NCBI GenBank assembly: GCA_017452885.1
Contig: JAFTLF010000121.1
Span: 1 to 44,986, forward strand
Direction of reading: 5' to 3'
Length of the DNA: 44,986 nucleotides
Origin: Alphaproteobacteria bacterium
GTDB lineage: Bacteria > Pseudomonadota > Alphaproteobacteria > RF32 > CAG-239
This document shows, piece by piece, positions 14,347 to 44,986 of the stretch. The notes under the pieces are model-generated. The model ran no database searches. It saw only the letters and a program-made list of their open reading frames with translations, and was not told the origin of the DNA. How positions within the stretch are numbered: the first letter of the stretch is position 1; every line of letters begins with the position of its first letter. The translations under genes and the position numbers were made by a program.

Positions 14347-14907
14347 ATGACTTTGATAGATATTTTTTTATTAGCGATAGCTTTAGCTGTCGATGCGTTT
14401 GTTGTATCTTTTTCTTATGGTTTGGTTATTCGCAAGCAACGTATGACATCGGCGCTAAAATTAGCATTTTCAGTTGGTTTCGGGCAATTTATCATGCCGA
14501 TTTTGGGTTGGTATGGCGCTCGTAGTATATACAGCTTTATAGAACAGGTTGATCATTGGATTGCTTTTTTTGTTTTCCTAACACTCGGCACGAAGGTGAT
14601 TGCAGATTCTTCCCAAAACCGCGATTATCAGGAAAAAAATAAAAATTCTCTTTCCTTCAAGGTATTGCTTATAATTGGAGTAGCCACGTCAATAGATGCT
14701 TTTGTCAGCGGTTCAATGCTTTACTTTATTAAAACACCAATTTGTCTGCCCTCTGTTATAATCGGATTAACTGCATTTATTGGCTCTTTGATAGGTTTTA
14801 ATTTATGTTGTGTTTTCAAAAAATTCAAAACACGCTGGCTTGAACAAATCTCAGGTGTTATTCTGATTTTGTTGGGTTGCAAGATTCTTTATGAACACAT
14901 TGGCTAA
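14347..14907 (+). CDS. mntP: Manganese efflux pump MntP (DUF204 repeats)
   Basis: AIALAVDAFVVSFSYG in the first half is repeated as GVATSIDAFVSGSM in the second. There are about six TM segments. GGAG lies 8 nt upstream of the ATG. Confidence 0.9.
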   Translation: MTLIDIFLLAIALAVDAFVVSFSYGLVIRKQRMTSALKLAFSVGFGQFIMPILGWYGARSIYSFIEQVDHWIAFFVFLTLGTKVIADSSQNRDYQEKNKNSLSFKVLLIIGVATSIDAFVSGSMLYFIKTPICLPSVIIGLTAFIGSLIGFNLCCVFKKFKTRWLEQISGVILILLGCKILYEHIG

Positions 14908-15647: not shown

Positions 15648-15717
15648 TATTTTTTCCTTAGCCGTTTTTATGGATTAAACTTATAAAGGAACAAATTTAA
15701 TATTTGATGAATTTAAA

Positions 15718-16470
15718 TTATTTATAATTATTAGATACCCACTCAATACCAATTCGTGCCAATTCACGATCATTATTGTTGCCAAAAGCATATATGCTGT
15801 GAAAAGTATGAGTTTCATTTTGTTCGGTTACAACTCGAATTTTTTCACCCATATATCCCTCTTTCTTAAACGCAATATTAATTCGTTGAGGATTATGGCT
15901 TAAACGAAATTCTGGATCAACTGCTTCACATGCCCACAAAATGTAAACGGCATTATTAACGTGCTTATTAACATCTATATCATCAAAGCGAACTTTGAAT
16001 TCATAATTATTAATATTTTCCTTTGCTTCTGGAATTGGAGAAAAATCAGCAATTAAAGCGTGCTTATTAATTGTTGTATATTCAGGTAAATAATCTTTAA
16101 GGCTAACAGGACGTTTGCGATCAACGTCAATTAATATCCATTGGCTAGATGCGCGAATAATACTTTTACCGTCTTCGCCAAATACTTCAAAATCGCGAAT
16201 GGCTCCGATACGTCGTTGTTCTGACGGCCATGTTTGAATACATATATTTTCGTGTATGTGAGGTAGGCGATCAATTTCCAACAAATAATTGGAGCCAAAC
16301 CAAGCGAGTCTGTGCGATGATACATATTCAAAACCAACACCCATCTGCTGAGCGTGATTGTCTGCCATATCTTGAAATATATTCATCAGTGTTAAAATAC
16401 GCAAATTATTATTGCGATCGCATTCGTAACTGCGAATATGATATTGTCCGACAAATTTTGTAACGCTCAT
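15718..16470 (-). CDS. Acyl-ACP thioesterase family protein (double hotdog), paralog A
   Basis: HIRSYECDRNNNLRILTLMNIFQDMA and FDDIDVNKHVNNAVYILWACE. By eye it is about 60% identical to the downstream paralog. Its ATG overlaps the TGA of the upstream gene (ATGA at 16467-16470). Confidence 0.85.
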   Translation of the reverse strand: MSVTKFVGQYHIRSYECDRNNNLRILTLMNIFQDMADNHAQQMGVGFEYVSSHRLAWFGSNYLLEIDRLPHIHENICIQTWPSEQRRIGAIRDFEVFGEDGKSIIRASSQWILIDVDRKRPVSLKDYLPEYTTINKHALIADFSPIPEAKENINNYEFKVRFDDIDVNKHVNNAVYILWACEAVDPEFRLSHNPQRINIAFKKEGYMGEKIRVVTEQNETHTFHSIYAFGNNNDRELARIGIEWVSNNYK

Positions 16471-17977: not shown

Positions 17978-18718
17978 TTATCTGCGAGCCTCTTGCCATG
18001 CGGCTAATTTTGCTTCGCGCCAAGCATTGGCTTTTTTCGCTGTTATTGTTCTGTCAATGCTCTTATTTTTAGCGATAACACGTTTTTTTTCAAGCTTTTT
18101 TACTTCGCTTTGCCCAGCTTTTGCAAACAGTGACGCACCTTTGATTTTTTGCGTTTGTCGAATTGTTTCATAAACCGAAGCTAATTTATTTTTATATCTC
18201 TTTGCTTTGAAAGGAACGCTTGAATGATAAGCCATTGCGGCTTTAATCCAATCGCCCTTTTTGTTTTTGTAAAGTTTCTTTAAAAACTTAGCCCCGTATT
18301 CAACATTCTTTTGTGGATCTAAAGCGTCTTCAATACTGGCAAATGCGTTAGGATGATAAGCGAGATTAATTTGCATACATCCGACATCGATGCTTTTAAC
18401 ACCTTTGGCTTGAAGTCTTTTGACTTCGCGTACTGCTTCAGCCTTTGTTGCAAAAAAGCGACCTTTTCCTTGGGCATTGATAGTCCAAGGCCAAGCCATG
18501 CTTTGCTGCCTTTGCTCATTCCAACGTCCTGTTTCAACTTTGGAAATGGTGGTTAATAGGTGTTCTTTGATTTGATATTCTTTTTCAAATTTTTGTGTTG
18601 CATCCATACAAACCAGAGCGTCATCTCTAAATTCAGTGTAAGCCCGAGCCTGTACTGGCTGAATAAACATCAGCAATATTAACAAAAACATCAAATATTT
18701 TGATACGAAAAGTCGCAT
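17978..18718 (-). CDS. Lytic transglycosylase (SLT domain), secreted
   Basis: Signal peptide MRLFVSKYLMFLLILLMFIQPVQA, then ISKVETGRW...WPWTINAQGKG...SIDVGCMQINLAYH...AAMAYHS. The stop lies 14 nt upstream of the RNase J-like start. Confidence 0.85.
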   Translation of the reverse strand: MRLFVSKYLMFLLILLMFIQPVQARAYTEFRDDALVCMDATQKFEKEYQIKEHLLTTISKVETGRWNEQRQQSMAWPWTINAQGKGRFFATKAEAVREVKRLQAKGVKSIDVGCMQINLAYHPNAFASIEDALDPQKNVEYGAKFLKKLYKNKKGDWIKAAMAYHSSVPFKAKRYKNKLASVYETIRQTQKIKGASLFAKAGQSEVKKLEKKRVIAKNKSIDRTITAKKANAWREAKLAAWQEARR

Positions 18719-30057: not shown

Positions 30058-31512
30058 TTATAATGCTAAATCAAGGATGTTCTTCGGAATATCATTCACC
30101 GATACCAGAGCGACAATTATGCAAATAAGAGCATATACTTGCAACATATTGGTAATTTCTTTGTTTTGCAGCAACGGAAAAATGTTTCCGTATTTGTGTA
30201 TAAAACGATTGACACCCAACATAATTAGTGTAACCGCAATAGCTTGCAATCCCAATCCTATCGTATTGAGCCATTTTTTTAACGGCAAGATAATTGGATA
30301 CAAAAAGCTGAAAAACAGCATATAAACAGCCAAAATGCCATAAGAAATTTTTTGCATTTTATGGCTAAAGGCTTGCTTTTCCGCTTTATCTTTTTTGATT
30401 TTTTCATCAGATAAATCAGCAATTTCGATTCCGCGAATTGTTTCAGGTGTTTGTTTTTGTTTTTTTATATTGCGTATTTCTTGATAAAATTTATCTTCTG
30501 TCATACACAATCCGCACCCCTTATTGGTAAAATAAACATGGTTAGGATTGTTTTTGCATTGTCGCAAGCTATGCATTAATGTCCATAAATGTTCTTGCCA
30601 TTCATAGGCGGTTGGGCGCTCTCCTCCTTTGGCAAAAGCACGTTCAAACATCTCCAACGTGGTTTTATCAAAATATTCATGCAGGGTGTAAGGGTGTGGA
30701 GCCTGATATTTATCCGGCCACAGACCATAGGCATAATGATAAGCTTCAATACGATTTTGTATGGTCAGCATTTCTTCGTCATTTTTGCGAGGAGTGCCGG
30801 AAAATGGATGTATTCCATTATTCAGTAGCTTAAAGATGATTACAGCCAATGCAAATTTATCCTGTTCTTCTCCCATTTCCTCGCAAGACAAGTTCATTCC
30901 TTCCGGATAAATATATTCTTCAGTTACAAACTCTGCCGGATAGCGAGCGCGCTCTCCTTTGATTGAAAAACCATCGCAATCAACCATTGCAACCAACATA
31001 TTTGATTTATATACAGACACATTTGACGGCTTCAAGTCCACAATATAATGTCCGCATTTGTGCAATGCCGTTACCATGGATGCAACATTATAAGCAGCAA
31101 AAATCCGATAAGCATATTTATCAGATAGTCCGAGTTTTTTGCGAATTGCTTTTTGCATAAGATGATCAAGCGAAACCGCTTCGCTCATATTTATAAGCGG
31201 CATCATATATCCGACACAAAATCCTTTTTCATCTTCCAAAATCGCTTCTGGCCAAGCAATTTGTGTATATTGCACACCATCGGTTTCCACCGGAGCAAAA
31301 TTGGGTTTATTAAGTAACATTGCCTCAAGTTTTTGCCTATTGGTGCGGCTTTTATCGGTATTGTGAAAAATTTTTGCTACTAATTCGGGGCGATTTTTTA
31401 CACTAAAAATTCGACCTGATGCCCCGCCGCGATTAAGAAGCTTATCAAGAGTAACTTTTCCGAAAGAACCGTCGGCATAGACGGCATTATAAATTGAGCT
31501 GTCATTTGTCAT
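30058..31512 (-). CDS. Ser/Thr protein kinase-like protein with C-terminal Cys cluster and three TM helices (YegI / TerY-P triad kinase type)
   Basis: GGASGRIF (Gly-loop-like), VAKIFH (VAIK Lys), GHYIVDLKPSNV (catalytic loop), VDCDGF (DFG equivalent), QDKFALAVIIFKLL. Then CKNNPNHVYFTNKGCGLC and the TM spans ISYGILAVYMLFFSFLYPIILPL, IGLGLQAIAVTLIMLGV, MLQVYALICIIVALVSV. ATG 31510-31512 overlaps the upstream TGA (ATGA). Confidence 0.8.
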   Translation of the reverse strand: MTNDSSIYNAVYADGSFGKVTLDKLLNRGGASGRIFSVKNRPELVAKIFHNTDKSRTNRQKLEAMLLNKPNFAPVETDGVQYTQIAWPEAILEDEKGFCVGYMMPLINMSEAVSLDHLMQKAIRKKLGLSDKYAYRIFAAYNVASMVTALHKCGHYIVDLKPSNVSVYKSNMLVAMVDCDGFSIKGERARYPAEFVTEEYIYPEGMNLSCEEMGEEQDKFALAVIIFKLLNNGIHPFSGTPRKNDEEMLTIQNRIEAYHYAYGLWPDKYQAPHPYTLHEYFDKTTLEMFERAFAKGGERPTAYEWQEHLWTLMHSLRQCKNNPNHVYFTNKGCGLCMTEDKFYQEIRNIKKQKQTPETIRGIEIADLSDEKIKKDKAEKQAFSHKMQKISYGILAVYMLFFSFLYPIILPLKKWLNTIGLGLQAIAVTLIMLGVNRFIHKYGNIFPLLQNKEITNMLQVYALICIIVALVSVNDIPKNILDLAL

Positions 31513-32261
31513 TTTGCCAACCTTATCCATACTAAAGTTTTGTCATCCGAATTAATCCGCTGAGCTTTGGGCATATCCAGAGTATTGTTAAGCGCTCGCA
31601 AAGCTTTTTGTTTGTTTTTTTCATTGATAAGATATGTATTAATCGGAGAAGTAAAGCCTTTTTCAATTTTCATAAAGTCCGGACTAAACGAAAAATTACT
31701 TACTCCGTCACTCATCAAAAAGACACTTTTGGCATTTTCAAAATTTAAGAAACGCAGATTTTCCAACCAAGCTTGTTGAGTGTAAAAAAATGTTTCGCAG
31801 GCAAATAACCCATTTTCGGGACGAGAAGCAATAAATTGCTCATGTTCATCATCCAAAAAAGCGATTCCGGCACCATCTCCGATATGGAAGAACAGTCCTT
31901 TTCCTTTATAATATACCATTCCGATAATTGTTGCGCTAAAATCCGCCAATCCTTGTTCGTTTTTAAATTTATTAAAGCGGTGGCGACATAATTTTTCGCG
32001 ACTGATACGTACGGCATGAATAACAGCATCTCGTATTTTGTTCCACGGCGCATTTTTCAAAAGGTCACACAGAGTTTCGCAAGCCGTTTTGGCACCGATT
32101 TTGCTGAATTTGGCGGATCCTGCGCCGTCAGAAACCACGGCCACAAAATTTTTGCCTTGCGCATGTTTGAAATAATCCTGACACGGTATATTATTACGAC
32201 GGTGCAAAACACCGCGTACGCTGGTTGCTACAATGCGTATGTTTGAACAACAACTATTCAT
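31509..32261 (-). CDS. PP2C-family Ser/Thr phosphatase-like protein
   Basis: SVRGVLHRRNNIPCQDYF, FVAVVSDGAGSAKFS, FHIGDGAGIAF and VFLMSDGVSNF are PP2C-like metal-binding Asp/Gly motifs. ATG 32259-32261 is preferred; the track start 32282 is a TTG. Confidence 0.8.
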   Translation of the reverse strand: MNSCCSNIRIVATSVRGVLHRRNNIPCQDYFKHAQGKNFVAVVSDGAGSAKFSKIGAKTACETLCDLLKNAPWNKIRDAVIHAVRISREKLCRHRFNKFKNEQGLADFSATIIGMVYYKGKGLFFHIGDGAGIAFLDDEHEQFIASRPENGLFACETFFYTQQAWLENLRFLNFENAKSVFLMSDGVSNFSFSPDFMKIEKGFTSPINTYLINEKNKQKALRALNNTLDMPKAQRINSDDKTLVWIRLAK

Positions 32262-32934
32262 CCCATTCGCCGGTATCTTCAATCAAATCGGGAGCATTTG
32301 GCGCTGCGCGAGAAACACAAGAAACACTGCGGCTTAACCACAGGAAAAATTCTGTAAACTTTAAGCCAGTCAAACGTTTGGGCGTGATTGTCGAAAACTT
32401 AGCCAATTTATCAAGATTAGCTCCTTGAGTGCCGACGGCGTGAATAACTACTTTTTTGTTATTTTGTGCCGCAATACATTTTTTGGCAACAATTTCCCAG
32501 TCATAGTCAGTAGGTTCGCCGTCACTGATAAGGAATATCCATGGCCGCTTAGAGGTAATTCCGCAACTGTCATAAAGACATTTTTGCTCTTCAATTTTTT
32601 TCAGGGCAAGTTCCATTGCTTTGCCCAAAGGTGTCAAACCGGAAGCTTCCATGGTGGGAGCTTCAAAATTCATCGCGTCTACCCAATCCGAAGATATTAC
32701 GGCTTCATCTTTGCCAAACGCTTTAATAATCAACAGTTGTACACGTGAGCTTGCATCAATATCTTCTTTCAGCTCTTGTTCCAAGGCTTTAAGTCCGGCA
32801 TTGAGTTGTTTAATAGGCTCTCCGCGCATTGAGCCGGAACAGTCCAACACTAACACACAAGGTGTACGTTCATTGGCATTATCTGCAAATTCCACATAGG
32901 GAATTAAATCATTTTCAATATCGCTTACAGCCAT
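32254..32934 (-). CDS. Cytoplasmic von Willebrand factor A domain protein with intact MIDAS (TerY/YegL-like)
   Basis: PCVLVLDCSGSMRG (D-x-S-x-S), SGLTPLG (Thr) and FLISDGEPTD (Asp). There is no signal peptide. AAGGA lies 8-9 nt upstream of the ATG. Confidence 0.85.
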   Translation of the reverse strand: MAVSDIENDLIPYVEFADNANERTPCVLVLDCSGSMRGEPIKQLNAGLKALEQELKEDIDASSRVQLLIIKAFGKDEAVISSDWVDAMNFEAPTMEASGLTPLGKAMELALKKIEEQKCLYDSCGITSKRPWIFLISDGEPTDYDWEIVAKKCIAAQNNKKVVIHAVGTQGANLDKLAKFSTITPKRLTGLKFTEFFLWLSRSVSCVSRAAPNAPDLIEDTGEWDE

Positions 32935-34132: not shown

Positions 34133-35110
34133 TTATTCATCACGAATTTTAATATCAGGAAACATTGCTAAACCTCTGGACATACGCGTCATTTGAGTTT
34201 CAATAGAGGTTGCCAGATTAAGTCGTCCGGTCTTAATAATACCACGAACTTGATCGCCTTTAGTTGTATCCGGATTAGCAAATAAGAATGAAATTTGCGG
34301 TTTTTTAACTGTTGTGCCCTCAAGTGATTGATGAATAACGCCCAACAGTCCGCGAGACAACAGATCATAAGCCAAATCCTCGCTCATGCCGCCGGAAGAA
34401 GCATATTTAACAACCGAGGCAATTGCATCAGTTACATTATTGGCGTGAATGGTTGATAAAACCATATGTCCCGATGTTGCCGCACGCAAAACTTCACTGG
34501 CGGTATCAGGAGTACGAATTTCTCCAACCATAATATAACGAGGTTTCGATCGAAGAGCAGATTTGAGCGATTCTCCCCACTTGCCGCCAATAGGCAAGGT
34601 TTGTTTACACAATCCTAGTCCTCCGGTTGATACCGGATAAATTCCGTCCAATGGTTGCTCGGTCGGGTCTTCAATTGTATAAGCAAATCCACCTTCAGTT
34701 GATAAAAATTCTTTTAAAAGGCTGGATATAGATGTTGTTTTACCCGAACCGGTTGGTCCTGCCCACAAAATCAAGCCGGAAGATTTGCGCAAACTCATCA
34801 AATAGGTTGATAACTCCTTTGGATAACCCAAAACGCTAAACGGAGCAACTTTCGCCGGCATTTTACGGGCGCAATACTGAACACCGCCGATTGTAATTGA
34901 ACGTTCAACACGATAATAAACATTGTGGTAAGAAACCGAATAGCTGGGATTTTCACCATCCCAAGAGTTTTTTACTAATTCATAAAACTCTTCAAAATCA
35001 TCCGGTTTAAACTCGATTAGAGCATTGGCGGTTCTTTTGTCGGGAATATATGCTACTTTTTCGGGAGTAATATAAATATCGGAAAATTTAGTTTCAGTAA
35101 TATTTGCCAT
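34133..35110 (-). CDS. PilT-like secretion ATPase (T2SSE family, short form)
   Basis: Walker A LWAGPTGSGKTTS, Asp box YTIEDPTE, Walker B RYIMVGEIRT and His box SGHMVLSTIHANN. At 325 aa it lacks the long N-domains and the Zn tetracysteine of the assembly ATPase. Confidence 0.85.
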   Translation of the reverse strand: MANITETKFSDIYITPEKVAYIPDKRTANALIEFKPDDFEEFYELVKNSWDGENPSYSVSYHNVYYRVERSITIGGVQYCARKMPAKVAPFSVLGYPKELSTYLMSLRKSSGLILWAGPTGSGKTTSISSLLKEFLSTEGGFAYTIEDPTEQPLDGIYPVSTGGLGLCKQTLPIGGKWGESLKSALRSKPRYIMVGEIRTPDTASEVLRAATSGHMVLSTIHANNVTDAIASVVKYASSGGMSEDLAYDLLSRGLLGVIHQSLEGTTVKKPQISFLFANPDTTKGDQVRGIIKTGRLNLATSIETQMTRMSRGLAMFPDIKIRDE

Positions 35111-35169
35111 TTTCTGCCTCTTTATATTGAGTTATAATAACGCATTGTAACATTTAGATGTTAATTTTT

Positions 35170-35207
35170 TACAAAGAAAGCCCCGTTTCCGGTCAGAAAC
35201 GGGGTTT
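35170..35207 (-). terminator. Intrinsic terminator after the distal pilin gene
   Basis: ccccgtttc (35181-35189) pairs with gaaacgggg (35196-35204), extendable by A-U/G-U pairs. The - strand then continues with CTTTCTTTGT. Confidence 0.6.
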
Positions 35208-35224
35208 CAATAACTCAAGAGAAA

Positions 35225-35803
35225 TTAGTAGTAAATCCAAGTAATTGAGTTTGTTGCGGTTGGACCGGAACATTCGCTGTAAGCTTGAGGTAATGACACC
35301 GGTAAAGCTTTAGCGGCAGCGTCAGAAGATCCATCATGGCTTGCTGTAAAGCTGGGCGTATCAACTTTAGCTCCGCTGATATTAATGCCGACTAAACCAT
35401 CTGTACCCCAATCGGTACTAGCCAAGCTGGCGCAGGTATCCTTGCCTAATCCGTTGAATGTTATGGCAAAATTTGTATTATTTGCTCCACCGGCAGCAAC
35501 CACAACATCTCCGCCAAAGGCATTATGAAGCGTGGTGCCCGTAATCATGTCACTGGGAGCCAGATTATAATCTACGGCATTGGAGGCGCTTAATCCATCA
35601 TAAGACGGAGAAGTTGCATAAGCCGTACGAATATTCATAAGCAACATTGTCAATTGGTCTTGTGCTTTGGTCAACTTAAATTTTGCCATAGCTTTTGAAT
35701 AACCGGAAATACCGCCAACTGACAAAACACCGATAATTGCAAGCACACCAAGCATTTCGACCATGGAACGCCCGCTTTGTTCACTATTAAATATCTTTTT
35801 CAT
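35225..35803 (-). CDS. Type IV prepilin, paralog 2 (192 aa)
   Basis: Class III signal MKKIFNSEQSG|RSMVEMLGVLAIIGVLSVGG with Gly-1 and Glu+5. A C-terminal Cys pair (KDTCASL...YSECSG) fits a disulfide-bonded D-region. GGGAGAAAG SD. Confidence 0.82.
   Translation of the reverse strand: MKKIFNSEQSGRSMVEMLGVLAIIGVLSVGGISGYSKAMAKFKLTKAQDQLTMLLMNIRTAYATSPSYDGLSASNAVDYNLAPSDMITGTTLHNAFGGDVVVAAGGANNTNFAITFNGLGKDTCASLASTDWGTDGLVGINISGAKVDTPSFTASHDGSSDAAAKALPVSLPQAYSECSGPTATNSITWIYY
35507..35803 (-). repeat. Copy 1 of a ~300-bp direct repeat (5' halves of the two pilin genes)
   Basis: It matches 36206..36502 at a constant 699-bp offset. I see only 4 mismatches across roughly 35616..35790. The encoded first 99 aa differ at 6 positions. 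Confidence 0.85.
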
Positions 35804-35927
35804 TGTCTTTCTCCCAAGTTCTGTGGTCCTATGAGTTCAGAATAACAAGAATAGCGAGATCAAACAATCTTATCTTTAGTCATAAAAGAGATATAAAAAG
35901 TAAGTTTAATATGCCTTTAGTTATAAC

Positions 35928-35956
35928 AAAAAAAGCCACCGAATGGTGGCTTTTTT
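35928..35956 (-). terminator. Intrinsic terminator between the two pilin genes
   Basis: aaaaaaa-gccacc-gaat-ggtggc-tttttt. On the - strand the hairpin is followed by TTTTTTTG, ~20 nt after the paralog-1 stop. Confidence 0.75.
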
Positions 35957-35971
35957 AAGAATTTTTTCTTC

Positions 35972-36502
35972 TTAGTAATAAGTCCATGTAATTGTGTTGC
36001 TGGCAGTAGCCGCAGAACATCCGGAAAAAGCATCCGGCAAAGAAATTGGAAGCTTATCAACAGTATGAGAACCGGATGTCAAAGCAATACTAACCAAACC
36101 ATCTGTACCCCAGTCTGTGCTACCTAAGCTAGCGCAAGTTTCTTTACCTAAGCCTTCAAATTTGATTGAAAAGTTCAAATCATTATTGCTGGTTTCCAGA
36201 GTAACGCCACCACCAAAGGCATTATGAAGCGTGGTACCTGTAATCATATCGCTTGGAGCCAGATTATAACTTACGGCACTGGAAGCACTCAATCCCTTAT
36301 AAGACGGAGAAGTCGCATAAGCCGTACGAATATTCATAAGCAACATTGTCAATTGGTCTTGCGCTTTGGTCAACTTAAATTTTGCCATAGCTTTTGAATA
36401 ACCGGAAATACCGCCAACTGACAAAACACCGATAATTGCAAGCACACCAAGCATTTCGACCATCGAGCGTCCGCTTTGTTCACTATTGAAAAAATTCTTC
36501 AT
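35972..36502 (-). CDS. Type IV prepilin, paralog 1 (176 aa)
   Basis: MKNFFNSEQSG|RSMVEMLGVLAIIGVLSVGG, with a Cys pair (KETCASL...FSGCSA). The start is set at ATG 36500-36502 (GGAG 8 nt upstream) rather than the track start 36544. Confidence 0.82.
   Translation of the reverse strand: MKNFFNSEQSGRSMVEMLGVLAIIGVLSVGGISGYSKAMAKFKLTKAQDQLTMLLMNIRTAYATSPSYKGLSASSAVSYNLAPSDMITGTTLHNAFGGGVTLETSNNDLNFSIKFEGLGKETCASLGSTDWGTDGLVSIALTSGSHTVDKLPISLPDAFSGCSAATASNTITWTYY
36206..36502 (-). repeat. Copy 2 of the ~300-bp direct repeat (5' half of pilin paralog 1)
   Basis: See copy 1 (35507..35803). Confidence 0.85.
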
Positions 36503-36573
36503 TTTCAAACTCCAAAAAAATCGTTCTGTACGTAGTCTACACACAATAGATTAAAAAATTATGAATAATTGCT

Positions 36574-36603
36574 ATTCTAAACACTATATAACAAATTTTT
36601 CAA
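36574..36603 (-). promoter_or_regulatory. Possible sigma70-type promoter for pilin paralog 1
   Basis: On the - strand: TTGAAA (36603-36598), an 18-nt spacer, then TAGAAT (36579-36574), about 70 nt upstream of the ATG. Confidence 0.3.
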
Positions 36604-36792
36604 CATTTTTTTCGGAATGTTCATAAAAACAAACTAAATACCTTAATAAATGCGTTTGTTTTACTCGCAATGCCACATCAACGTGCTAGAACTTTTACAT
36701 ATATTCTTTGCCAAATCCTTTTTTATCGGCAATGCAAATTCCTTATCACTCCATGTGAAATATTGCAGATTGCTACCATTGATAATAGTTAC

Positions 36793-37245
36793 TCAGGTAA
36801 CTCCAAACCAAAATTTTTCATCAAATTTATGGCTGGCAAGCTCTTCGCATTGCTTTTTATTAAGACCTTTATAAATGATGTCAAAGCCTCTTGCTCCTGG
36901 CATCAAGACCTCTGCATTTTCTCCGTTTCCGACCAGAATCTGATTACCAAAAAAACCGATTAATTGTTCTTTTTGCAACATTTTTTGCGGATATAGTTTA
37001 TTTTTAATCACTGTATTGGTGCTTAATCCCCAAAAATCAGGTCGATTTTGATAATAACGACGAATGTTATTGCTCAAGGTAACAATTTCATCAGCCGCCT
37101 GTTGTGTTCCGACATCAGCCTCGCGCGTAAATAACCATACACACAAAGCAACAACAATGATAATTGCTACACCAATCCATATTTTGAAATTATAAATCAG
37201 AGCACTTTGTAACAATATAACAAACTTTCTCAATTTTTCTGTCAT
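36793..37245 (-). CDS. Membrane-anchored pilin-fold paralog lacking a prepilin cleavage motif (150 aa)
   Basis: The start is set at MTEKLRKF (ATG 37243-37245), 1 nt after the platform-gene stop. There is one TM helix (IWIGVAIIIVVALCVWLF). NIRRYYQNRPDFWGLSTNTVIKNKLYPQKML and FDIIYKGLNKKQCEELASHKF align with the pilins' NIRTAYATSPSYDGLSASNAVDYNLAPSDMI and FAITFNGLGKDTCASLASTDW. Confidence 0.55.
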   Translation of the reverse strand: MTEKLRKFVILLQSALIYNFKIWIGVAIIIVVALCVWLFTREADVGTQQAADEIVTLSNNIRRYYQNRPDFWGLSTNTVIKNKLYPQKMLQKEQLIGFFGNQILVGNGENAEVLMPGARGFDIIYKGLNKKQCEELASHKFDEKFWFGVT

Positions 37246-37246
37246 C

Positions 37247-38383
37247 TTAACCTGCTCCCATACCACTGGTAATCTGATCTTGCATTTCAAACGTACCCAT
37301 AACCGCCCAAGCAATAACCGCACCGATGGCAAGCAAAGCCACCATGTTCAAAACGCCGGCTTTTTCTTCAATCATGTGTACGGATTCATCAAGCCAATCA
37401 TTAGCAAGATTATCCAATGCTTCTTCAAAGTTATCAAGCTCGGAATAGATTTTCAAATCACTGATGATTTCTTTATCTGGAAAATCTAAATGCGTCTTAC
37501 CCAATGCTTGTCCGAGGTTTTCACCATTATTAATAAAGACAAGAGTTTTATCAATGCGTTCTTTCAAATAACGGCTTGCATCACGACGCAAAGCTCGCAA
37601 AGCTGTCGAAACCGGTGTTCCGCCTTTGACCAAGGCCGATAAAGCCAACAGCCAACTAATACCTGTAAATACCTTGTACAAAGACCATGGCGGAATGTTG
37701 TCAAAAATGGCGCGAATTCTTCCGGTCCAAATTCCGATGGTGAAATATATGATAGACATAACTATCGGCAAAGCAGAAAAAGCGAACAACCAATTGTCTT
37801 TAATCCACCCTGACAAATCAACCAAATCTCGTGCCAATCCGCGCCATCTAACACCGGGAGCAGCATCAATCATTGGTGGCACCATATAAACACCGATAGC
37901 ATAAATAATCAAAACCGCCATCATCAACAGAAAACTCGGGTAGGTAATTGCGCCGACAATCGGTCGTATCATTTTGGTTGAACCTTCGGTAACTTTAATC
38001 AAGTTTAATAAAGCTCCTTCCAAGTCCGAAACGTCACCCACCGAAAGCATAAGTCTTTCACGATCCGGAGCCCAGCCCTTTAGTGCATCGGAAAATGTTT
38101 TACCATTATTAAGTGATTTCCCCCAAGCGGCAATGGCAATTGCCAACGGTTCTCCTGGATTCTTACCGCCGTTACTGGCTCCGTCATATAACATATCCAG
38201 TGCATCCATAAGCGAAAATCGGTTTTTCATTAATGATGCGATTTTTCGATAAAGCTTTAGGCGTACTTTGTTGGAAAACTGCATAACAAGACGGGCATAA
38301 TATTCTTCAACCAAGTTGAAATTATGCATAGCCTTTGCTAGTGATTTCGATTTCTTTTTCTTTGCTATTACTTCTTCTGCCAT
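37247..38383 (-). CDS. Type IV pilus inner-membrane platform protein (GspF/PilC family; R64 PilR-like)
   Basis: 378 aa with two GspF-type repeats and three TM blocks (ITYPSFLLMMAVLIIYAIGVYMV, WLFAFSALPIVMSIIYFTIGIW, LNMVALLAIGAVIAWAVMG). It sits directly after the assembly ATPase. Confidence 0.88.
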   Translation of the reverse strand: MAEEVIAKKKKSKSLAKAMHNFNLVEEYYARLVMQFSNKVRLKLYRKIASLMKNRFSLMDALDMLYDGASNGGKNPGEPLAIAIAAWGKSLNNGKTFSDALKGWAPDRERLMLSVGDVSDLEGALLNLIKVTEGSTKMIRPIVGAITYPSFLLMMAVLIIYAIGVYMVPPMIDAAPGVRWRGLARDLVDLSGWIKDNWLFAFSALPIVMSIIYFTIGIWTGRIRAIFDNIPPWSLYKVFTGISWLLALSALVKGGTPVSTALRALRRDASRYLKERIDKTLVFINNGENLGQALGKTHLDFPDKEIISDLKIYSELDNFEEALDNLANDWLDESVHMIEEKAGVLNMVALLAIGAVIAWAVMGTFEMQDQITSGMGAG

Positions 38384-38395
38384 GTCTTATCTGCC

Positions 38396-40084
38396 TTAAT
38401 ATACCGGACGTTGATCCATAAGTCCGCACCAACGTTCCACTTCATCTAAATCAATAAACCCTTTAAGCATACGTTCTATTGCTGCTTCTTTCAGTGTTCT
38501 GCCGTTAAGGTCGCTGGTCCAGTAGTCGATTGCTTTACGAGTTTCGCCGTCAACCATCAATTTTAAGAATACGGCATCGGGCAAAATAATTTCAGGAACA
38601 CACATACGACCTTTCACCCCTGTGCCACCACAAAATTTGCATCCGGCACCGCGAACAAAAGTATTTTCCACCCCAAAATCACCCAAAGCCGTGCGCAAAC
38701 GCTGAAAAGACGGATCATTTTGACGCTCTTTGACCGGCATTCGACAGTGTGGGCATAATTTACGAAACAAACGTTGAGAAACCAACCCTTTGATTAATTC
38801 GGGGTCTAATAACTTAAATGTTTCAACACCCATATCGCGAAAACGGTTAAGAATAGCCGGAGCCGAGTTGGCGTGCAGGGTTGACCACATACCGTGTCCT
38901 GATAACGCCCCCTGAAAGGTTAATTGTGCCGAGGCCAAAGCTCGAATTTCGCCCACCATAATAACGTCAGGGTCGGATCGCAAAGCCGCTGACAAAGCTT
39001 TGGTAAATTGTTCTGCTTTTTCTTCTTCTGTATTGGCATTGGTCACCGGCATTTGTCTGGCTCCGGGAATCGGATACTCAGGAGGATCTTCCACTGTCAA
39101 AAGGTTTAGTTCATAGTTTTTTTCTTGCAATAGCTTAATCATGTTTCTTTGCAAGGTGGTAGATTTTCCGGATCCTGTGGGGCCGGCTACAATACTCAAG
39201 CCAACCGGTACTGCTCGCAAACGATAAAATAAATCTTCTTCAAATTGTCCAAACCCCAAAGAAGCCAAATCGCCGGAGCCATCCGGATTATCATCGGCAT
39301 ACAATAGTCGCATGACCAAATATTGCGAACCAAAGGCAATTGGATTAAATTGCAAACGAATAGCCAACACATTATGTGGCAACATTAACTTACCTTTGGA
39401 ACCGCGCAACGGTGTAGAGCCAAGTTTTTGCGCTCCCTGAAATTCATTTTGCGTATAGTTTGAGTCAGAAATATCTGCCGAGGCAAATGCTGCACGAACA
39501 AACGCCTCTCCCCATTCTTTATTATACTCCATTTCGGTATGCATCATACCATTAACACGAAACATAATAACCGTATTATCAGCCACAACAATATGAATAT
39601 CCGACACTTTCTTGGCGGCGGCTTGTGCAACCACATTCACAAAGTCTTTTTGCATTTGCAGTTGATCAAGCTCTGTATCTGCGCTGACTTCTGCGGCTGC
39701 TTGTGCGCGTTCGCCGATGCTGTAAATAGCATTCAGCTCATTCTGCGAAATATAAATAGGCTTAGTAATGTTTAGCTTTTTCTTGCGAGCTAATACTTCA
39801 AAACTGAGTACGCGACCGTCAAACTTATGGGTTTCAACTACCAAAAAACGTCCATCGGCAAATAATGCCAACAAACGTCGCGTGTCATCGTTAACCACCA
39901 AAGAAGAACCGGGCAAAGTTAACAATCTATTGCCATTAGAAAAGTAAGTATCAATAATTGAAGATTTTTTTTCAGGTTCCTTTTCATCATTAGGCTTGCG
40001 AATATCGGATACGGCAGCATCTGTGTCTGCCGCATCTTCCGTCTTTCCTAATTTGATGTCATCCTCATCTTCAGCTTCAGCCAT
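38396..40084 (-). CDS. Type IV pilus assembly ATPase (GspE/PilB family; R64 PilQ-like)
   Basis: Walker A VAGPTGSGKSTT, Asp box LLTVEDPPEYPIPG, Walker B DVIMVGEIR, His box GHGMWSTLHANS and the tetracysteine CPHC...CKFCGGTG. Confidence 0.94.
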   Translation of the reverse strand: MAEAEDEDDIKLGKTEDAADTDAAVSDIRKPNDEKEPEKKSSIIDTYFSNGNRLLTLPGSSLVVNDDTRRLLALFADGRFLVVETHKFDGRVLSFEVLARKKKLNITKPIYISQNELNAIYSIGERAQAAAEVSADTELDQLQMQKDFVNVVAQAAAKKVSDIHIVVADNTVIMFRVNGMMHTEMEYNKEWGEAFVRAAFASADISDSNYTQNEFQGAQKLGSTPLRGSKGKLMLPHNVLAIRLQFNPIAFGSQYLVMRLLYADDNPDGSGDLASLGFGQFEEDLFYRLRAVPVGLSIVAGPTGSGKSTTLQRNMIKLLQEKNYELNLLTVEDPPEYPIPGARQMPVTNANTEEEKAEQFTKALSAALRSDPDVIMVGEIRALASAQLTFQGALSGHGMWSTLHANSAPAILNRFRDMGVETFKLLDPELIKGLVSQRLFRKLCPHCRMPVKERQNDPSFQRLRTALGDFGVENTFVRGAGCKFCGGTGVKGRMCVPEIILPDAVFLKLMVDGETRKAIDYWTSDLNGRTLKEAAIERMLKGFIDLDEVERWCGLMDQRPVY

Positions 40085-40086
40085 TT

Positions 40087-41442
40087 TTATCTGACCATCA
40101 TTGCAGATCCAACGCCGGGAATGCCGACACTGCTCACAAAATTAGAGCTTTCTTCTTGATCTTCCGCTTGTGCTGCCAAAGCATTGTTCAGAGAACTGGC
40201 CGGTTGCTCCAAAGGCAAAATTCCACCGGCAGCAAAGTACAGATAATCCTTCACACCACCTTTATCAGCACGCACATAGGTCGATGTAATTTCATCAATA
40301 GTATGCCCGCTTTGAAGAGCAGTTCCTTTCTTAACATAGAAAGATGTACCGTCCTGATTAACAAGCTTAGCAATCAACTCACCACCCTGTCCGCGAATTT
40401 CCATTACTGCGTACATATTCGGCAATTTTAACTCAGGCATGGGGGCAACTTGCGTTTCGGCACTTTGCTCGGTTTTCTCCGCTCCGCTATCGGCAGAGGC
40501 AACATCTTCAAACGGATTCTGTCTGCTAGCTTCCAGTTCTTTTTCTTGCGCGATAATTCTTGATTTCAAAACTCCGATTTGGGCATTCAAATCATCAACT
40601 CTTTGTTTGTGCTTACTGATAAGATTGGCTGCCTTGGTATTAGAAGCTGCAATATCATTTTTCAACTGCAAAAATTTGTCTTTGGAATCATCCAAAAGTT
40701 TTTGATTTTCTTTTTTTGTATCTTCAATTTGCTTATACAAGTCAGCATCATGAGCAATCCATTTTTGAACATCTTCCAAATATTTGTTCTTATAAGCATT
40801 CAAAATACGTTCTTGACGCAGTTTTTCAAACTCAATATCCAGTTCACGCAATTTTTGTTGCTCTTGCAGAACTTTCTGTTCTTGAGCTTTTTCCCATTCT
40901 ATTTTTTGTTTTTCTTGCGCTTCTTTCTTTTCTTGTTCTTGAATCAAGGCTTGTCGACGTTGATTTTTGATAGCCTCTATCTCATTTTTTATTTTTTCAC
41001 GGCGCAACTCCAGATTTAACAATGCGGTTTGTTTTTCTATATCAGACATTTGCGAAAACAAACCATCATCCATAGCCGGTTCGTCATCAATATCATTAAA
41101 TGCTGAAGCAACATTTGTTTTTGGAGCAACAAAAGAAGGTTCTTTTTCGGCGCTAACATTATCGGAAGTTGCCGGAACACCTGTTTTGGGGATGATTTTT
41201 TCGGGGGCGAAAATTTCATCGGTTGTTTCTGATTTTTTATTTGCCAAAACCGGAGCAGGAGCAGATTTACTGTCATCATCATCGTTAAACATGGCAAATT
41301 CATCAGGAATATCCTTGTTTATATCGTCATTAGCAGCTTCCTCACTCAAAGTCACCAAAGCCCGAGCATCAAAACTGATGCCGATACCCAATAACAATGC
41401 CAAAGCCGATACGGATAAAATATTTCTTATTTTATAAAACAT
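40087..41442 (-). CDS. PilP-like pilus assembly protein with a long charged coiled-coil insert (451 aa)
   Basis: The start is set at MFYKIRNIL (ATG 41440-41442, GAGGGGG 7 nt upstream). It has an N-terminal signal/anchor SVSALALLLGIGISF, an acidic region and an E/K/Q-rich coiled coil (QEQEKKEAQEKQKIEWEKAQEQKVLQEQQKLRELDIEFEKLRQE). The C-terminal beta domain is MYAVMEIRGQGGELIAKLVNQDGTSFYVKKGTALQSGHTIDEI. Confidence 0.55.
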   Translation of the reverse strand: MFYKIRNILSVSALALLLGIGISFDARALVTLSEEAANDDINKDIPDEFAMFNDDDDSKSAPAPVLANKKSETTDEIFAPEKIIPKTGVPATSDNVSAEKEPSFVAPKTNVASAFNDIDDEPAMDDGLFSQMSDIEKQTALLNLELRREKIKNEIEAIKNQRRQALIQEQEKKEAQEKQKIEWEKAQEQKVLQEQQKLRELDIEFEKLRQERILNAYKNKYLEDVQKWIAHDADLYKQIEDTKKENQKLLDDSKDKFLQLKNDIAASNTKAANLISKHKQRVDDLNAQIGVLKSRIIAQEKELEASRQNPFEDVASADSGAEKTEQSAETQVAPMPELKLPNMYAVMEIRGQGGELIAKLVNQDGTSFYVKKGTALQSGHTIDEITSTYVRADKGGVKDYLYFAAGGILPLEQPASSLNNALAAQAEDQEESSNFVSSVGIPGVGSAMMVR

Positions 41443-42709
41443 AGATAGCCCCCTCATAATGCCATGTTTTGTCAACCGGAGAATATGTTATCATATTAAT
41501 CTGAAGTCCTGAATATTTTGTTAACATCTCATTCCAAGTTGCCGGATTATAATCTGATGTAAATGAAAATTTTATCTTGCGATAAATTTTTCCGGTTGCG
41601 CTGGTTTCTACTTCCACGGCTTGAGATATTTTAAGCCCCAGAGCTTGAAATTCATCATTTAATTGGTTTTGCAAATCCATCATATTTTTTTCCGGTGGAG
41701 ATGCAATCATTTCCCCGGTGGAAATCGGCAAAGTAGCAGATAATGTTTCGCCATCGCCAGAAAAAGAAAATCCCGAAAATGGCAATTCTGATTCTTCCAT
41801 GGCTTTTTTTGCCCAAGACAACCGTCCGATACTGCGTCGCCAAGATGTTGCCACACTTCCTTGAGCGCATGCAATCATACCAATATCCCATCCCGGCGGC
41901 ATAATTTTAACCAAATCCATGGCCTTTTTATAGCATTCTATCATCACGGTTTTCGGATTAGTCATTTGTTCCCATGGTTTTGCCTCAACAACCGGAGCTG
42001 CTGTCTGAACGATTTTGGGCTTTACCGGCACCACCACCGGAGCCACCGTCGGTGTTAAAAACAGACGATCAATCAAACTTGAAACCAACCACAACCCGAC
42101 TACGGCAGAAATTCCAATAACTAAAAACAGCTTAGCGCCACGCAAGCCTTTAATTTTTTGCAGTTTAGACTTTGCGCCGCGAGCCAAAATTTCACCGAGA
42201 TCCATTTCCTCGGTATCTTCAATTTCCCACTCCTTAGGGGCAATTTTTTTGCCCCAGTCCGGCACGGCCAGCATTGATGTAAACTGACTTTTTGCTTCTT
42301 CTTCGCTAAGAAACAGCATATCGCCGTCAGACAAGATAATGTCATTACGAATACAAGTATACCACCAACCTTCGGTCGTTTTAAATACAGCTACATAAGA
42401 AGAAACATTAGACAACGCGGTTGCAAGTGCCACAGCACCAACCGTTTCTCCACTGTGATAACCTTCGTGAGATACACAAATACCAAACTGTGGAGCCTTA
42501 CCGCTCTTGATGCAGAAAAGGTCAGCACCTTCAAGCACACCGGCAGAAGCCTCTTCAACTTCTTGGAAAGGATCACTGGAATTTTGCAGCGGTTGCCAAA
42601 ACAAGCTGGTTGCATAAACGGTTCCATCTACATTAATAGACGTTCCCCACGACCGCTTGCCGGAATCGCTGTCATAATCCTCATCTAACAATTTGGCTTC
42701 TTCAAGCAC
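41432..42709 (-). CDS. PilO-like type IVb pilus accessory protein (R64/PAPI-1 PilO family, putative)
   Basis: At 425 aa it is of similar size to my recollection of R64 PilO. The N-terminal VYATSLFWQPL motif resembles the family's GLFWQ signature. There is a central TM helix LFLVIGISAVVGLWLVSSLI. The GTG start has AAGGGAG upstream. The gene lies between the secretin and PilP-like genes. Confidence 0.55.
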   Translation of the reverse strand: MLEEAKLLDEDYDSDSGKRSWGTSINVDGTVYATSLFWQPLQNSSDPFQEVEEASAGVLEGADLFCIKSGKAPQFGICVSHEGYHSGETVGAVALATALSNVSSYVAVFKTTEGWWYTCIRNDIILSDGDMLFLSEEEAKSQFTSMLAVPDWGKKIAPKEWEIEDTEEMDLGEILARGAKSKLQKIKGLRGAKLFLVIGISAVVGLWLVSSLIDRLFLTPTVAPVVVPVKPKIVQTAAPVVEAKPWEQMTNPKTVMIECYKKAMDLVKIMPPGWDIGMIACAQGSVATSWRRSIGRLSWAKKAMEESELPFSGFSFSGDGETLSATLPISTGEMIASPPEKNMMDLQNQLNDEFQALGLKISQAVEVETSATGKIYRKIKFSFTSDYNPATWNEMLTKYSGLQINMITYSPVDKTWHYEGAIYVL

Positions 42710-42732
42710 TGGTTTTCTCCCTTAGGCGTTTT

Positions 42733-44343
42733 TTAGTTCATTGACATTCTGGTTTCCGGCATCAACGGTGATTCCAAAACAACCGGTGTCAAAATAATAA
42801 CCAGAACACTACGTTCTTTAGAGGCATTAGCATATCCGCCAAGCAAAGAATTGTCAGCCGAACCTGTTCCTTCTTTTTGTGTTTGTGAAGAAACTTTTTC
42901 ATAGCCGGTCAGAATCAACGATTCACCGGAGGTCATAGCTAACTCTTGAGAAAAGGCGCGTGACTCAATTTTCGGGTTCTGAATATATTGGTTTGATTCT
43001 GCGTCACCAAATTCAACCTTTTCCAATGCGGTCAAATCAGACAGTGTCATGTTAAACAAAACCAGCATCCGACCATGCTCCAGAATACGCGGCAATACAT
43101 CTAAGGTAAAGCCTGTTTCAACTTCTTCTGTTGTGACAGAAATATCATAGTTATTTCCGTCTGTACCGCTGTTGGTCTTGGTCATCTCCGCAATATAATT
43201 TTGCTTTTGAGTAACCTGAATCGGTGCCGGTTTATTGTTCAAAGTAGTAACTGTACCACTGGTAACCAGACTGGTATTATTGCGCTGTGACAAAGCCTTA
43301 ATCGCAGCATCTGCATTCCAGTTCTTTTTGGTGATACCCCATGATAATCCGTTTGTCAGGCCGGATTCTCCTCCGGTTGCCGCGGAAGAACCGATAACAC
43401 CGATAGATGTAACTCCATCATCAAAAGCAGCCTTCAAATCCAAACCATAATTGTCTGTATCTGTTGACGTAACTTGCAAAACTTTAACGCTGATAGCAAC
43501 TTGACGCGACAAACGAGCGTTTTGCTCATTAACATATTTAGCGACTTTTTTGATATCGGTCGGTGTTCCGGTCAGGGTAATTGTACCATCAGCCGGTGAC
43601 ATTGATAATTTAGCACCTTCACTAATCATTGAGGTTATACTTTTTTCAAAGTTTGCCCACAATTCAACTTCTGCCGAGTTGGCAAGACTGACGGATGAAC
43701 TTCCACTACCGTCAGAAGACGAACCACCGACATTAATTGACAAAGTCGGCTTAGTTGGCAAACTATAAATCACAAAAGTTTTGGTAATATATTTATAGAA
43801 ATGAATTTCTTTTCTTTCATACTTCCACCAAATTCCAAAACGACTGGCAATTTCATCCAACAATCCGCTTAAAGGTCCCTGATAAGATACCAACATTTTA
43901 TCAGGATCTGCCCAGTCTTTATTTATTGAATCCGGTTTAGGTTCGTTAGAAGCTCCTTTGCTTAAAATATCAGCTTCCATTTGTGCCGCATAACGAACAC
44001 CGAGTGATGTTGTCTTATTAATCATATCGCCAATTTCAAATAATGTAATTGCACGGTTAGATACCAACGTAATGCCGTCTTTACCTTCCAGATACGAAGG
44101 TAAAGGTTCTCCTTCATATTCAATTGTACTGCTGTCGCCCAGCCATATATCATCTTTAACCTTAATCAAATCATGGTTAGCAACGGTTGTAGGCTCTTTA
44201 GCGGCTTCGGTTAATTTGATGGCCGCTTCGGTCTGGCGCTTGATTGTTGCATCCATACTTGTTGAAATAGAGCATGAGGCCGCAAAAGTTAAAACCAAAG
44301 CTCCTAAACTGAATTTTTGTAAATTAGTTAAACGCATTCTCAT
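42733..44343 (-). CDS. Type IVb pilus secretin, lipoprotein form (PilN/TcpC/BfpB-like)
   Basis: Lipobox-like signal LGALVLTFAASC. The secretin C-domain reads LDVLPRILEHGRMLVLFNMTLSDL...QNPKIESRAFSQELAMTSGESLILTGYEK...LLGG...ERSVLVIILTPVVL. Confidence 0.88.
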   Translation of the reverse strand: MRMRLTNLQKFSLGALVLTFAASCSISTSMDATIKRQTEAAIKLTEAAKEPTTVANHDLIKVKDDIWLGDSSTIEYEGEPLPSYLEGKDGITLVSNRAITLFEIGDMINKTTSLGVRYAAQMEADILSKGASNEPKPDSINKDWADPDKMLVSYQGPLSGLLDEIASRFGIWWKYERKEIHFYKYITKTFVIYSLPTKPTLSINVGGSSSDGSGSSSVSLANSAEVELWANFEKSITSMISEGAKLSMSPADGTITLTGTPTDIKKVAKYVNEQNARLSRQVAISVKVLQVTSTDTDNYGLDLKAAFDDGVTSIGVIGSSAATGGESGLTNGLSWGITKKNWNADAAIKALSQRNNTSLVTSGTVTTLNNKPAPIQVTQKQNYIAEMTKTNSGTDGNNYDISVTTEEVETGFTLDVLPRILEHGRMLVLFNMTLSDLTALEKVEFGDAESNQYIQNPKIESRAFSQELAMTSGESLILTGYEKVSSQTQKEGTGSADNSLLGGYANASKERSVLVIILTPVVLESPLMPETRMSMN

Positions 44344-44986
44344 CCTCCATGGTTTCTACAACCAAGACTCTGTTACCTTTATAAAATGTTGCAATCGGAG
44401 CAGGGCGCGCTCTGGCAAACGTGCGTATTAATGCCGAGCTTACATCGGCAAAGCGTCCGCGGAACATTGCCCCTGCCGCCAATGTATAGTTACGATTGGT
44501 ATTCCAAATTAATCTCCAGCCGGATCTCTCGCTCCATTCGCTGAGCAAGCCTTTTAGAGTACTACCTTCCTCGGCTAACCAATCTTCAACCGGATCATCT
44601 CCGGAGCCAAGACTACGGCTCTCAGCATCATTTTCATCGGAAGCGTCCATGGCTGAGTTAATTTCATCTTCATAATCCATGACTTCTTCTTCGATTGTCG
44701 GCGGAATAGAGGCCGCCATACTGCTTCCGGCACCAGCGGTGACAATTCTTTGGTCACGAGGATTGCGCTCGCCAAATTCGCGATAATCGGCAGCAACTTC
44801 GCGATAGTTAATAAAATCATTATCGGCCGGCTCCGTTGGTGGAACGATTACAGGTTCAACGGGGGCTTGCTCGGCACAAGGAGCTTGCGCAACGGGAGCT
44901 TGCTCTGCCGTAGCTACCGGAATCAATCTGGTTTCGGTTACGGTTGTTGTTTCGTCTTCAGCATAGGTGTTTCCTGCACCGAAATA
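44324..44986 (-). CDS. TcpQ/PilL-like secretin-associated protein, C-terminal part; 5' end outside window
   Basis: The reading frame stays open to the window edge, since the codons upstream of the track TTG at 44926 have no stop. It has an Ala/Pro/Gln-rich linker (AEQAPVAQAPCAEQAPVEP). The C-terminal LKGLLSEWSERSGWRLIWNTNRNYTLAAGAMFRGRFADVSSALIRTF...ATFYKGNRVLVV resembles the TcpQ-type domain. It overlaps the secretin start by ~20 nt. Confidence 0.6.
   Translation of the reverse strand, partial: YFGAGNTYAEDETTTVTETRLIPVATAEQAPVAQAPCAEQAPVEPVIVPPTEPADNDFINYREVAADYREFGERNPRDQRIVTAGAGSSMAASIPPTIEEEVMDYEDEINSAMDASDENDAESRSLGSGDDPVEDWLAEEGSTLKGLLSEWSERSGWRLIWNTNRNYTLAAGAMFRGRFADVSSALIRTFARARPAPIATFYKGNRVLVVETMEDENAFN

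Follow-up and report, generated by a model that had tools for sequence, protein, structure and literature searches.

A BFP-like type IVb pilus cluster on the chromosome of uncultured gut Alphaproteobacteria, next to a divergent VirB-type secretion operon

Which kind of type IV pilus is encoded by ten consecutive genes at the end of a contig from an uncultured alphaproteobacterium (GTDB lineage RF32, CAG-239; GenBank assembly GCA_017452885.1, contig JAFTLF010000121.1), and what might it be used for? We analyzed the whole 44,986-nt stretch (the window, to which all positions refer unless another contig is named). The cluster occupies 34133-44986, with all ten open reading frames (ORFs) in the same orientation on the minus strand. 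Type IVb (T4b) pili have become known chiefly as virulence factors of enteric Gammaproteobacteria, i.e., the bundle-forming pilus (BFP), the toxin-coregulated pilus (TCP), colonization factor antigen III (CFA/III) and Longus, and as mating pili of the IncI/PAPI-1 type. An initial annotation, made from the sequence alone, had labelled the cluster ‘R64/PAPI-1-style’. Our comparisons place it elsewhere: it is a seemingly complete gene set for a BFP-like T4b pilus and no new kind of machine, and we consider it probable that this pilus is retractable, vertically inherited and used, most likely, for attachment or aggregation.

Profile searches with Pfam and NCBIfam gave all ten ORFs a type IV filament identity, and every family signal claimed in the initial annotation was found. 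An assembly ATPase (T2SSE), an inner-membrane platform (T2SSF), a secretin and PilS/Bundlin pilins lie together in one co-oriented cluster. In the T4b pilus model of Denise et al. (2019; PMC6668835) the ATPase, platform, secretin and major pilin are encoded together, while the prepilin peptidase is mandatory and may be a ‘loner’ apart from the cluster. The best NCBIfam model for the secretin is TIGR02520, of the PilN-family T4b secretins (270.4 bits, under the cutoff of 287.65); rival models score far lower (MshL, 113 bits; GspD, 43; T4a PilQ, 30). TcpQ, PAP_PilO and Bundlin matches exceed their Pfam cutoffs, which favors T4b-specific parts over the GspD/GspC-M and PilMNOPQ sets. The type II secretion and T4a readings, which had been named as possible outcomes of profile searches, are rejected on the profile scores, and the call of a T4b pilus with a lipoprotein secretin and a TcpQ-type partner is retained.

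The window proteins were compared by blastp and hhalign with three reference clusters: bfp of enteropathogenic Escherichia coli (EPEC) on pMAR2 (L087); the R64-type pil operon of the IncI-type Serratia plasmid pKM0260a (L088), used in place of R64 itself (AP005147); and a cluster on pANAM02 of the alphaproteobacterium Bosea sp. ANAM02 (L086). Seven of the ten proteins score higher against EPEC BFP than against the IncI operon. The core of the BFP family (bfpA-L on the EPEC adherence factor plasmid) is represented by a bundlin-type pilin related to BfpA and by homologs of BfpG, BfpB, BfpC, BfpD, BfpE and BfpF, and the core order G-B-C-x-D-E is common to both clusters. They also share a lipoprotein secretin, a dedicated retraction ATPase, and a bundlin-like pilin with a short leader, a glutamate at +5 and a conserved disulfide. 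Judged by these sequence scores, the cluster stands closer to EPEC BFP and the cluster of the Bosea chromid than to the pil operon of IncI type.

The gene order L-N-O-P-Q-R-S does match that of the R64 thin pilus (pilL-V) and of PAPI-1 pil2 (the sequence comparison covered the IncI operon). A PilN-type lipoprotein secretin, a TcpQ-domain PilL and a physical link to a type IV secretion system (T4SS) are likewise shared with the IncI/R64 type. However, PilL, PilO, PilQ, PilR and the pilin score lower against IncI than against BFP, the two R64-family models that match (TIGR02520 and TIGR03021) stay under their cutoffs, and the PilO-like protein matches no NCBIfam family. PilM, PilT (lytic transglycosylase), PilU (peptidase), PilV and the Rci shufflon, all present in the IncI operon, were found neither in the cluster nor in its flanks. 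Conversely, the cluster includes a PilT-type retraction ATPase, which the IncI operon lacks, and the neighboring T4SS is VirB-type in relatives of the window rather than I-type. Because the scores favor BFP and R64-type parts are missing, we regard the cluster as a BFP-like T4b pilus with a gene set of its own, outside the R64/PAPI-1 family; the original label holds only in part.

For PilN, PilO, PilQ, PilR and PilL the Bosea cluster, itself uncharacterized, scores best or close to best, although identities to the window proteins are only 25-43%. It also has a second, short ATPase, but directly after the platform gene. No homolog of a 550-amino-acid (aa) protein that heads the pilus operon in window relatives (see below) was detected there, and the examined 30 kb of this 692-kb, non-mobilisable replicon carry no annotated T4SS. 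The differences from BFP are of several kinds. BFP is plasmid-borne in a pathogen, whereas the window cluster forms part of the core chromosome of an alphaproteobacterial clade; the pilin gene comes first in bfp, whereas here two pilin paralogs follow the platform gene. BfpP, BfpH, the cleavable minor pilins BfpI/J/K, BfpU and BfpL found no match in the cluster by blastp, tblastn or hhalign. Relative to BFP there are three additional components (the exported 550-aa protein, a PilP-like protein with coiled coils and a pilin-like anchor that is not cleaved), and the pairing with a VirB-type T4SS is unlike BFP.

The PilL-like gene is cut by the window end, and its N-terminus and lipobox, which the initial annotation had suggested looking for past 44986, are indeed there. 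Two metagenome contigs of the European Nucleotide Archive, L001 and L002, match the window at 98.95% identity over 16.6 kb and run past its edge. The complete gene in L001 encodes a 244-aa lipoprotein with the signal MNKKALQRISVLSAFLVAG ahead of the cysteine (lipobox LVAG/C). Its hhalign scores are 99% with Bosea TcpQ, 98.5% with BfpG and 72% with IncI PilL (69 bits for BfpG vs. 34 for IncI PilL). The secretin signal ends in FAAS/C, with S23 and C24 invariant across 13 homologs; the protein is 28-29% identical to each of BfpB, IncI PilN and Bosea PilN, with scores of 186 bits for BFP vs. 179 for IncI. The PilO-like protein aligns with Bosea PilO2 (hhalign, 99.7%), with BfpC over its full length (98.1%) and with IncI PilO over the C-terminal half (92%), and the platform protein scores 232 bits with Bosea, 211 with BfpE and 107 with IncI PilR.

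The PilQ-type ATPase, which is 70-95% identical among 74 species, scores 316 bits against Bosea, 305 against BfpD (35% identity) and 193 against IncI PilQ. The short ATPase is 32% identical to BfpF over its entire length (residues 1-313, E 1e-44) and 32.5% identical to the second ATPase of the Bosea cluster. Its top solved-structure matches are PilT retraction ATPases, and the sequence shows Walker A (GPTGSGKT), Asp box, Walker B and His box motifs. An exhaustive ATPase search brought up mostly metagenomic relatives.

Pilin paralog 1 has the leader MKNFFNSEQSG/RSMVE. Aligned with BfpA, the pilins share the G(-1) cleavage site, E(+5), an NxFGG motif and two conserved cysteines; paralog 2 is 29% identical to BfpA over its full length, and the hhalign score is 98% with BfpA vs. 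94% with the IncI pilin. The two paralogs are 78% identical to each other, with near-identical N-terminal halves and differences concentrated C-terminally, and median pilin identity across species is 46%. Variable C-terminal regions in tandem pilins and fast divergence would fit a surface-exposed, diversifying adhesin. A promoter-like site lies upstream of pilin 1 (36603-36574), and a strong, terminator-like hairpin with a T-run directly follows each pilin gene (35929-35956 for pilin 1; 35204-35181 for pilin 2); the first of these hairpins is symmetrical and could act on both strands. The third pilin-related product resembles the globular domain of BfpA (hhalign, 96%) and carries no G/x4/E leader in any of 70 homologs (182-214 aa, 70 species).

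Table 1. Genes of the pilus cluster in the window, listed from the window end inward.
Feature	Position	Strand	Evidence
PilL/BfpG-like lipoprotein, C-terminal TcpQ	44324-44986 (first ~24 codons past window end)	-	Pfam TcpQ, E 2e-15
Lipoprotein secretin, PilN/BfpB type	42733-44343	-	Pfam Secretin; TIGR02520, 270 bits
PilO/BfpC-like inner-membrane assembly protein	41432-42709	-	Pfam PAP_PilO, 51 bits, full length
PilP-like protein, weak assignment	40087-41442 (ORF 40087-41475)	-	TIGR03021, 31.7 bits
Extension (assembly) ATPase, PilQ/BfpD type, two CxxC motifs	38396-40084	-	Pfam T2SSE, 219 bits
Inner-membrane platform, PilR/BfpE (GspF family)	37247-38383	-	Pfam T2SSF, two repeats
Pilin-fold bitopic membrane protein, without prepilin cleavage motif	36793-37245 (ORF 36793-37332)	-	Pfam Bundlin, 26.6 bits
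Bundlin-type major pilin paralog 1, 176 aa	35972-36502 (ORF 35972-36544)	-	Pfam PilS, 47 bits; Bundlin, 42.6 bits
Bundlin-type major pilin paralog 2, 192 aa	35225-35803	-	Pfam PilS and Bundlin
BfpF/PilT-like putative retraction ATPase, 325 aa, without N-terminal GspE domain	34133-35110	-	T2SSE/PilT-like match

Where the listed ORF is longer than the gene, the most likely start is given: 36502 for pilin 1 (ATG with a GGAG ribosome-binding site, giving 176 aa), 41442 for PilP and 37245 for the pilin-fold gene.

Is the cluster a mobile acquisition or a resident of the chromosome? Relatives of the secretin number at least 834 at 90% clustering and occur in 217 species-representative genomes, of which the best 80 supplied the loci compared here. 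All 80 are metagenome-assembled genomes of uncultured Alphaproteobacteria from gut, faeces or rumen, among them ‘Proteobacteria bacterium CAG:495’ and ‘Ca. Scatocola’; one complete-looking contig of the clade is ~1.8 Mb. We found no description of pili or T4SS for this clade in the literature. Across the 80 loci the genes follow one essentially invariant order, from the 550-aa protein through L, N, O, P, Q and R to the pilin-like protein and the pilin(s). Median identity is 83% for PilQ and PilR vs. 60% and 50% for the neighboring housekeeping genes gpt and tlpA, respectively, and the identity of pilus proteins co-varies with that of tlpA (Spearman rho 0.81-0.95) and gpt (0.5-0.63). Outside the cluster, the window carries core chromosomal genes (dnaK, rpsA, cmk, rpmH-rnpA-yidD-yidC-engB, one for a sigma factor and others), as the initial annotation had noted of the flank, and where flanks differ between species they too consist of housekeeping genes.

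The pilus cluster thus belongs to the core chromosome of a large clade of uncultured gut Alphaproteobacteria with low guanine-plus-cytosine (GC) content, in which it is inherited vertically, and its description as a long-resident, ‘domesticated’ system is borne out. The patchiness of an integrative and conjugative element (ICE) is not seen, with the same order in 80/80 species loci and identities that track tlpA and gpt. No element-type integrase was seen in the flanks within reach, and no tRNA gene lies within 9 kb of the cluster (att repeats were not searched for); the only recombinase seen is a XerC/D-like one beside aroK, in a subset of species. Because the cluster is conserved, co-diverging and flanked by housekeeping genes, an ordinary ICE-borne mating pilus is unlikely. 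The comparison of base composition that had been proposed for this region gave a modest excess only: the pilus genes have 42.1% GC (36% at third codon positions), compared with 38.2% (31%) for the 27 other window genes (Mann-Whitney p ~0.001). Such an excess is too small, and too old a signal, for recent transfer, and recent horizontal acquisition is rejected by synteny and co-divergence.

The initial annotation saw no conjugation genes, which is correct inside the window, where profile searches found no relaxase, T4SS gene, integrase, shufflon, PilV, prepilin peptidase or in-cluster transglycosylase. The absence of conjugation genes is nevertheless an effect of the window edge, because a divergent T4SS begins just past 44986. 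In L001 the PilL-like gene is preceded, in the same orientation, by the gene for the 550-aa exported protein (3288-4940), which heads the pilus operon in 81 of 83 loci (duplicate strain contigs included). This protein has an N-terminal signal or anchor, a low-complexity middle and a highly conserved C-terminal part of ~110 residues. It has no Pfam or NCBIfam match, and a profile of its C-terminal domain matched no solved structure; a faint Pal/OmpA-like register can be made out, with an hhalign probability for Pal of only 11%. A VirB-type T4SS operon starts ~0.4 kb beyond this gene on the opposite strand, i.e., ~2.2 kb past the window edge.

The T4SS operon begins with two TrbC/VirB2-like genes, followed in the L001/L002 region by a gene whose 1430-aa product combines a signal peptide with long coiled coils and an embedded VirB2-like hairpin. 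In relatives both near and far the operon goes on with a 96-aa VirB3-like gene, VirB4 (TIGR00929, 376 bits), several genes for proteins without family assignment, VirB8, a small lipoprotein, a second VirB8 and CagX/VirB9; the distal genes were followed in loci reached through homologs of the VirB4 N-terminus (L089, L092 and L093). The divergent operon stands beside the pilus operon in the majority of 75 informative loci (38 by direct ORF call, ~53 by our reading), and another 16 loci have a weakly TrbL-like protein in the T4SS position. VirB4 is 72-94% identical between species, and the identity of pilus proteins co-varies with that of VirB2a (rho 0.64-0.82). The search for an upstream transfer module or ICE boundaries therefore has a divided outcome: a T4SS is adjacent, but neither a relaxase nor a coupling protein was seen as far as VirB9 in L089 and L092, nor an element-type integrase within reach. 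A scan of viral contigs with VirB8 gave no match.

Two features of this T4SS deserve separate mention. Giant VirB2-family proteins of 600-1895 aa (L005 1485-5957, L001 1-1733, L022 158-5845) have a signal peptide, long coiled coils and one TrbC-like hydrophobic hairpin in mid-protein and vary greatly in length between species; their genes come after the small VirB2 genes and ahead of the VirB3-like gene. Furthermore, two VirB8 genes flank the small lipoprotein (62 aa as called; L092 19282-21464, L089 19731-21476). The rvh T4SS of the Rickettsiales (PMC2653234) likewise combines vertical conservation, a duplicated VirB8, a small VirB7-like lipoprotein and expanded paralog families. However, rvh is scattered in islets, whereas the system described here is a single operon with VirB2 as the expanded family, and the likeness is one of gene content.

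What would such a pilus do? By homology, the cluster provides every structural component for building a T4b fibre, along with a putative motor for its retraction. The PilO/BfpC and PilP-like proteins and the GspF-type platform would lie in the inner membrane, and the secretin with its TcpQ/BfpG-type partner in the outer membrane. Prepilins with the leader M-K-x-x-F-N-S-E-Q-S-G would be cut by an A24 peptidase encoded elsewhere, after which the BfpD-like ATPase, acting via the platform, would polymerize the pilin through the secretin and its partner. The BfpF-like ATPase would then depolymerize or retract the fibre, and retraction would pull partner cells together. BFP of EPEC gives reversible aggregation and attachment, and by analogy the pilus described here most likely mediates attachment and cell-to-cell or cell-to-host aggregation.

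The neighboring T4SS may extend this role. Since the pilus operon is divergently paired with the T4SS in most species, retraction may bring a target cell within T4SS range, and the conserved head-to-head arrangement with a VirB2-expanded T4SS hints at joint use in contact-dependent transfer. Going further, pilus and T4SS could form one co-regulated, vertically inherited contact apparatus in which the pilus reels a partner in and the T4SS injects; we put this forward as a speculative idea that is unlikely to hold.

A tentative alternative, to which we give a minor chance, is that the pilus stabilizes mating pairs in liquid for a conjugative system, in the manner of IncI plasmids and PAPI-1-type ICEs, together with the VirB-type T4SS and either as an old integrated element or as a chromosomal apparatus. 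The pairing of T4b pilus and T4SS is the rule in IncI plasmids (L088), in most species the T4SS operon directly borders the pilus operon and is read away from it, and the nearest plasmid-borne VirB4 homolog (Microvirga pMVF16-3, 39% identity) belongs to a classical MobA/VirB/VirD4 conjugation module, so that the T4SS itself may have a role in DNA transfer. Against conjugation stand the missing relaxase, coupling protein and element-type integrase in the reachable DNA (as far as VirB9), the lack of a PilV adhesin or shufflon, and the presence of the block at the same place in all 80 species loci, where it co-diverges with its housekeeping neighbors. The T4SS traits, i.e., VirB2 paralogs including giant ones and a duplicated VirB8, are also more typical of host-interaction systems such as rvh (PMC2653234).

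An adhesion pilus is also preferred over a competence pilus that pulls extracellular DNA through the secretin. Secretin, pilins and retraction ATPase are the minimal parts for DNA uptake, but genes for ComEA, ComEC and DprA were absent from the window and the examined flanks, and the closest characterized relative of the cluster is an adhesion pilus. To our knowledge, the characterized competence pili are of T4a or Com types, not T4b, and we regard this use as improbable.

Several observations weigh against a functional, retractable BFP-like pilus of long chromosomal residence. Its use is argued by analogy with EPEC. No prepilin peptidase was found in the window by profiles, nor within 10 kb of the secretin in the 80 species by tblastn with BfpP and IncI PilU; pilin processing is therefore assumed, and we infer that the peptidase is encoded elsewhere in the genome. 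The BfpF-like gene adjoins the pilins in only 35 of 80 loci. The PilP assignment is weak: TIGR03021 matches under its cutoff of 34.65 (E 3e-7), the BLAST match to IncI PilP covers 53 residues only, and no hhalign match with reference-cluster proteins reaches 50%. The PilP-like protein has an N-terminal signal or anchor, an acidic and coiled-coil insertion of ~300 residues and a C-terminal beta domain, the latter part modelled from a single sequence by AlphaFold at low confidence (pLDDT 55). The ~4-point GC excess is compatible with an ancient foreign origin. Finally, the pilin-fold gene of the window carries a TGA at 36795-36793 (-) that shortens its product from 194 to 150 aa; if real, this premature stop could disable the system in this strain.

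The TGA leads to the possibility that the system is decaying and non-functional in this strain, to which we give little credence. The truncation removes the invariant F163, W165 and C183 of the pilin-like protein, and there is no peptidase in view. The other nine genes are intact, however, and all of them end in TAA. The same position reads GGA in three contigs that are 98.9-99.4% identical to the window (L001, L002 and L003), and the single-base difference lies in what is probably metagenome-derived sequence and may be a consensus error. Either the strain carries a nonsense mutation of its own here, or the assembly is in error.

TCP exports TcpF and CFA/III exports CofJ; that the cluster is mainly a secretion device for a nearby-encoded protein, such as the conserved exported 550-aa protein that heads the operon in nearly all loci, is nevertheless very improbable, given that the conserved C-terminal domain of this protein and its weak Pal/OmpA-like register fit a structural or anchoring part better and that Pfam reveals no TcpF- or CofJ-type substrate homology.

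Elsewhere in the window, an SLT-domain lytic transglycosylase is encoded at 17978-18718 (-), 16 kb from the pilus cluster. Opening of peptidoglycan is the role of BfpH and of R64 PilT, and this protein is the window's only candidate for it; within the cluster itself, profile searches agreed with the initial annotation that peptidase, transglycosylase, PilV and shufflon are absent. Beside the cluster, and kept in several relatives, is a module of three genes (30058-32934, -) for a vWA protein, a PP2C phosphatase and a Ser/Thr kinase that has membrane segments at its C-terminal end; this module seems to resemble the ‘TerY-P triad’. Two tandem acyl-ACP thioesterase paralogs lie at 14904-16470 (-).

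According to a 2019 survey, which added Acidithiobacillia and Nitrospirae, T4b pili had previously been reported from Gammaproteobacteria only (PMC6668835). The cluster described here makes a BFP-like system with its own putative retraction motor a conserved chromosomal trait of widespread, uncultured gut and rumen Alphaproteobacteria, in which the pilus is under stronger constraint than its housekeeping neighbors and is paired with a T4SS. If the contact apparatus outlined above were real and core to the whole order, a life in attachment to host cells, protists or other bacteria would be expected of these ‘commensals’, which would then be epibionts or parasites and not free inhabitants of the lumen. 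The pilus offers a lead on how these little-studied organisms attach and interact in the gut, and it provides non-pathogen relatives for studying BFP-type assembly and retraction.

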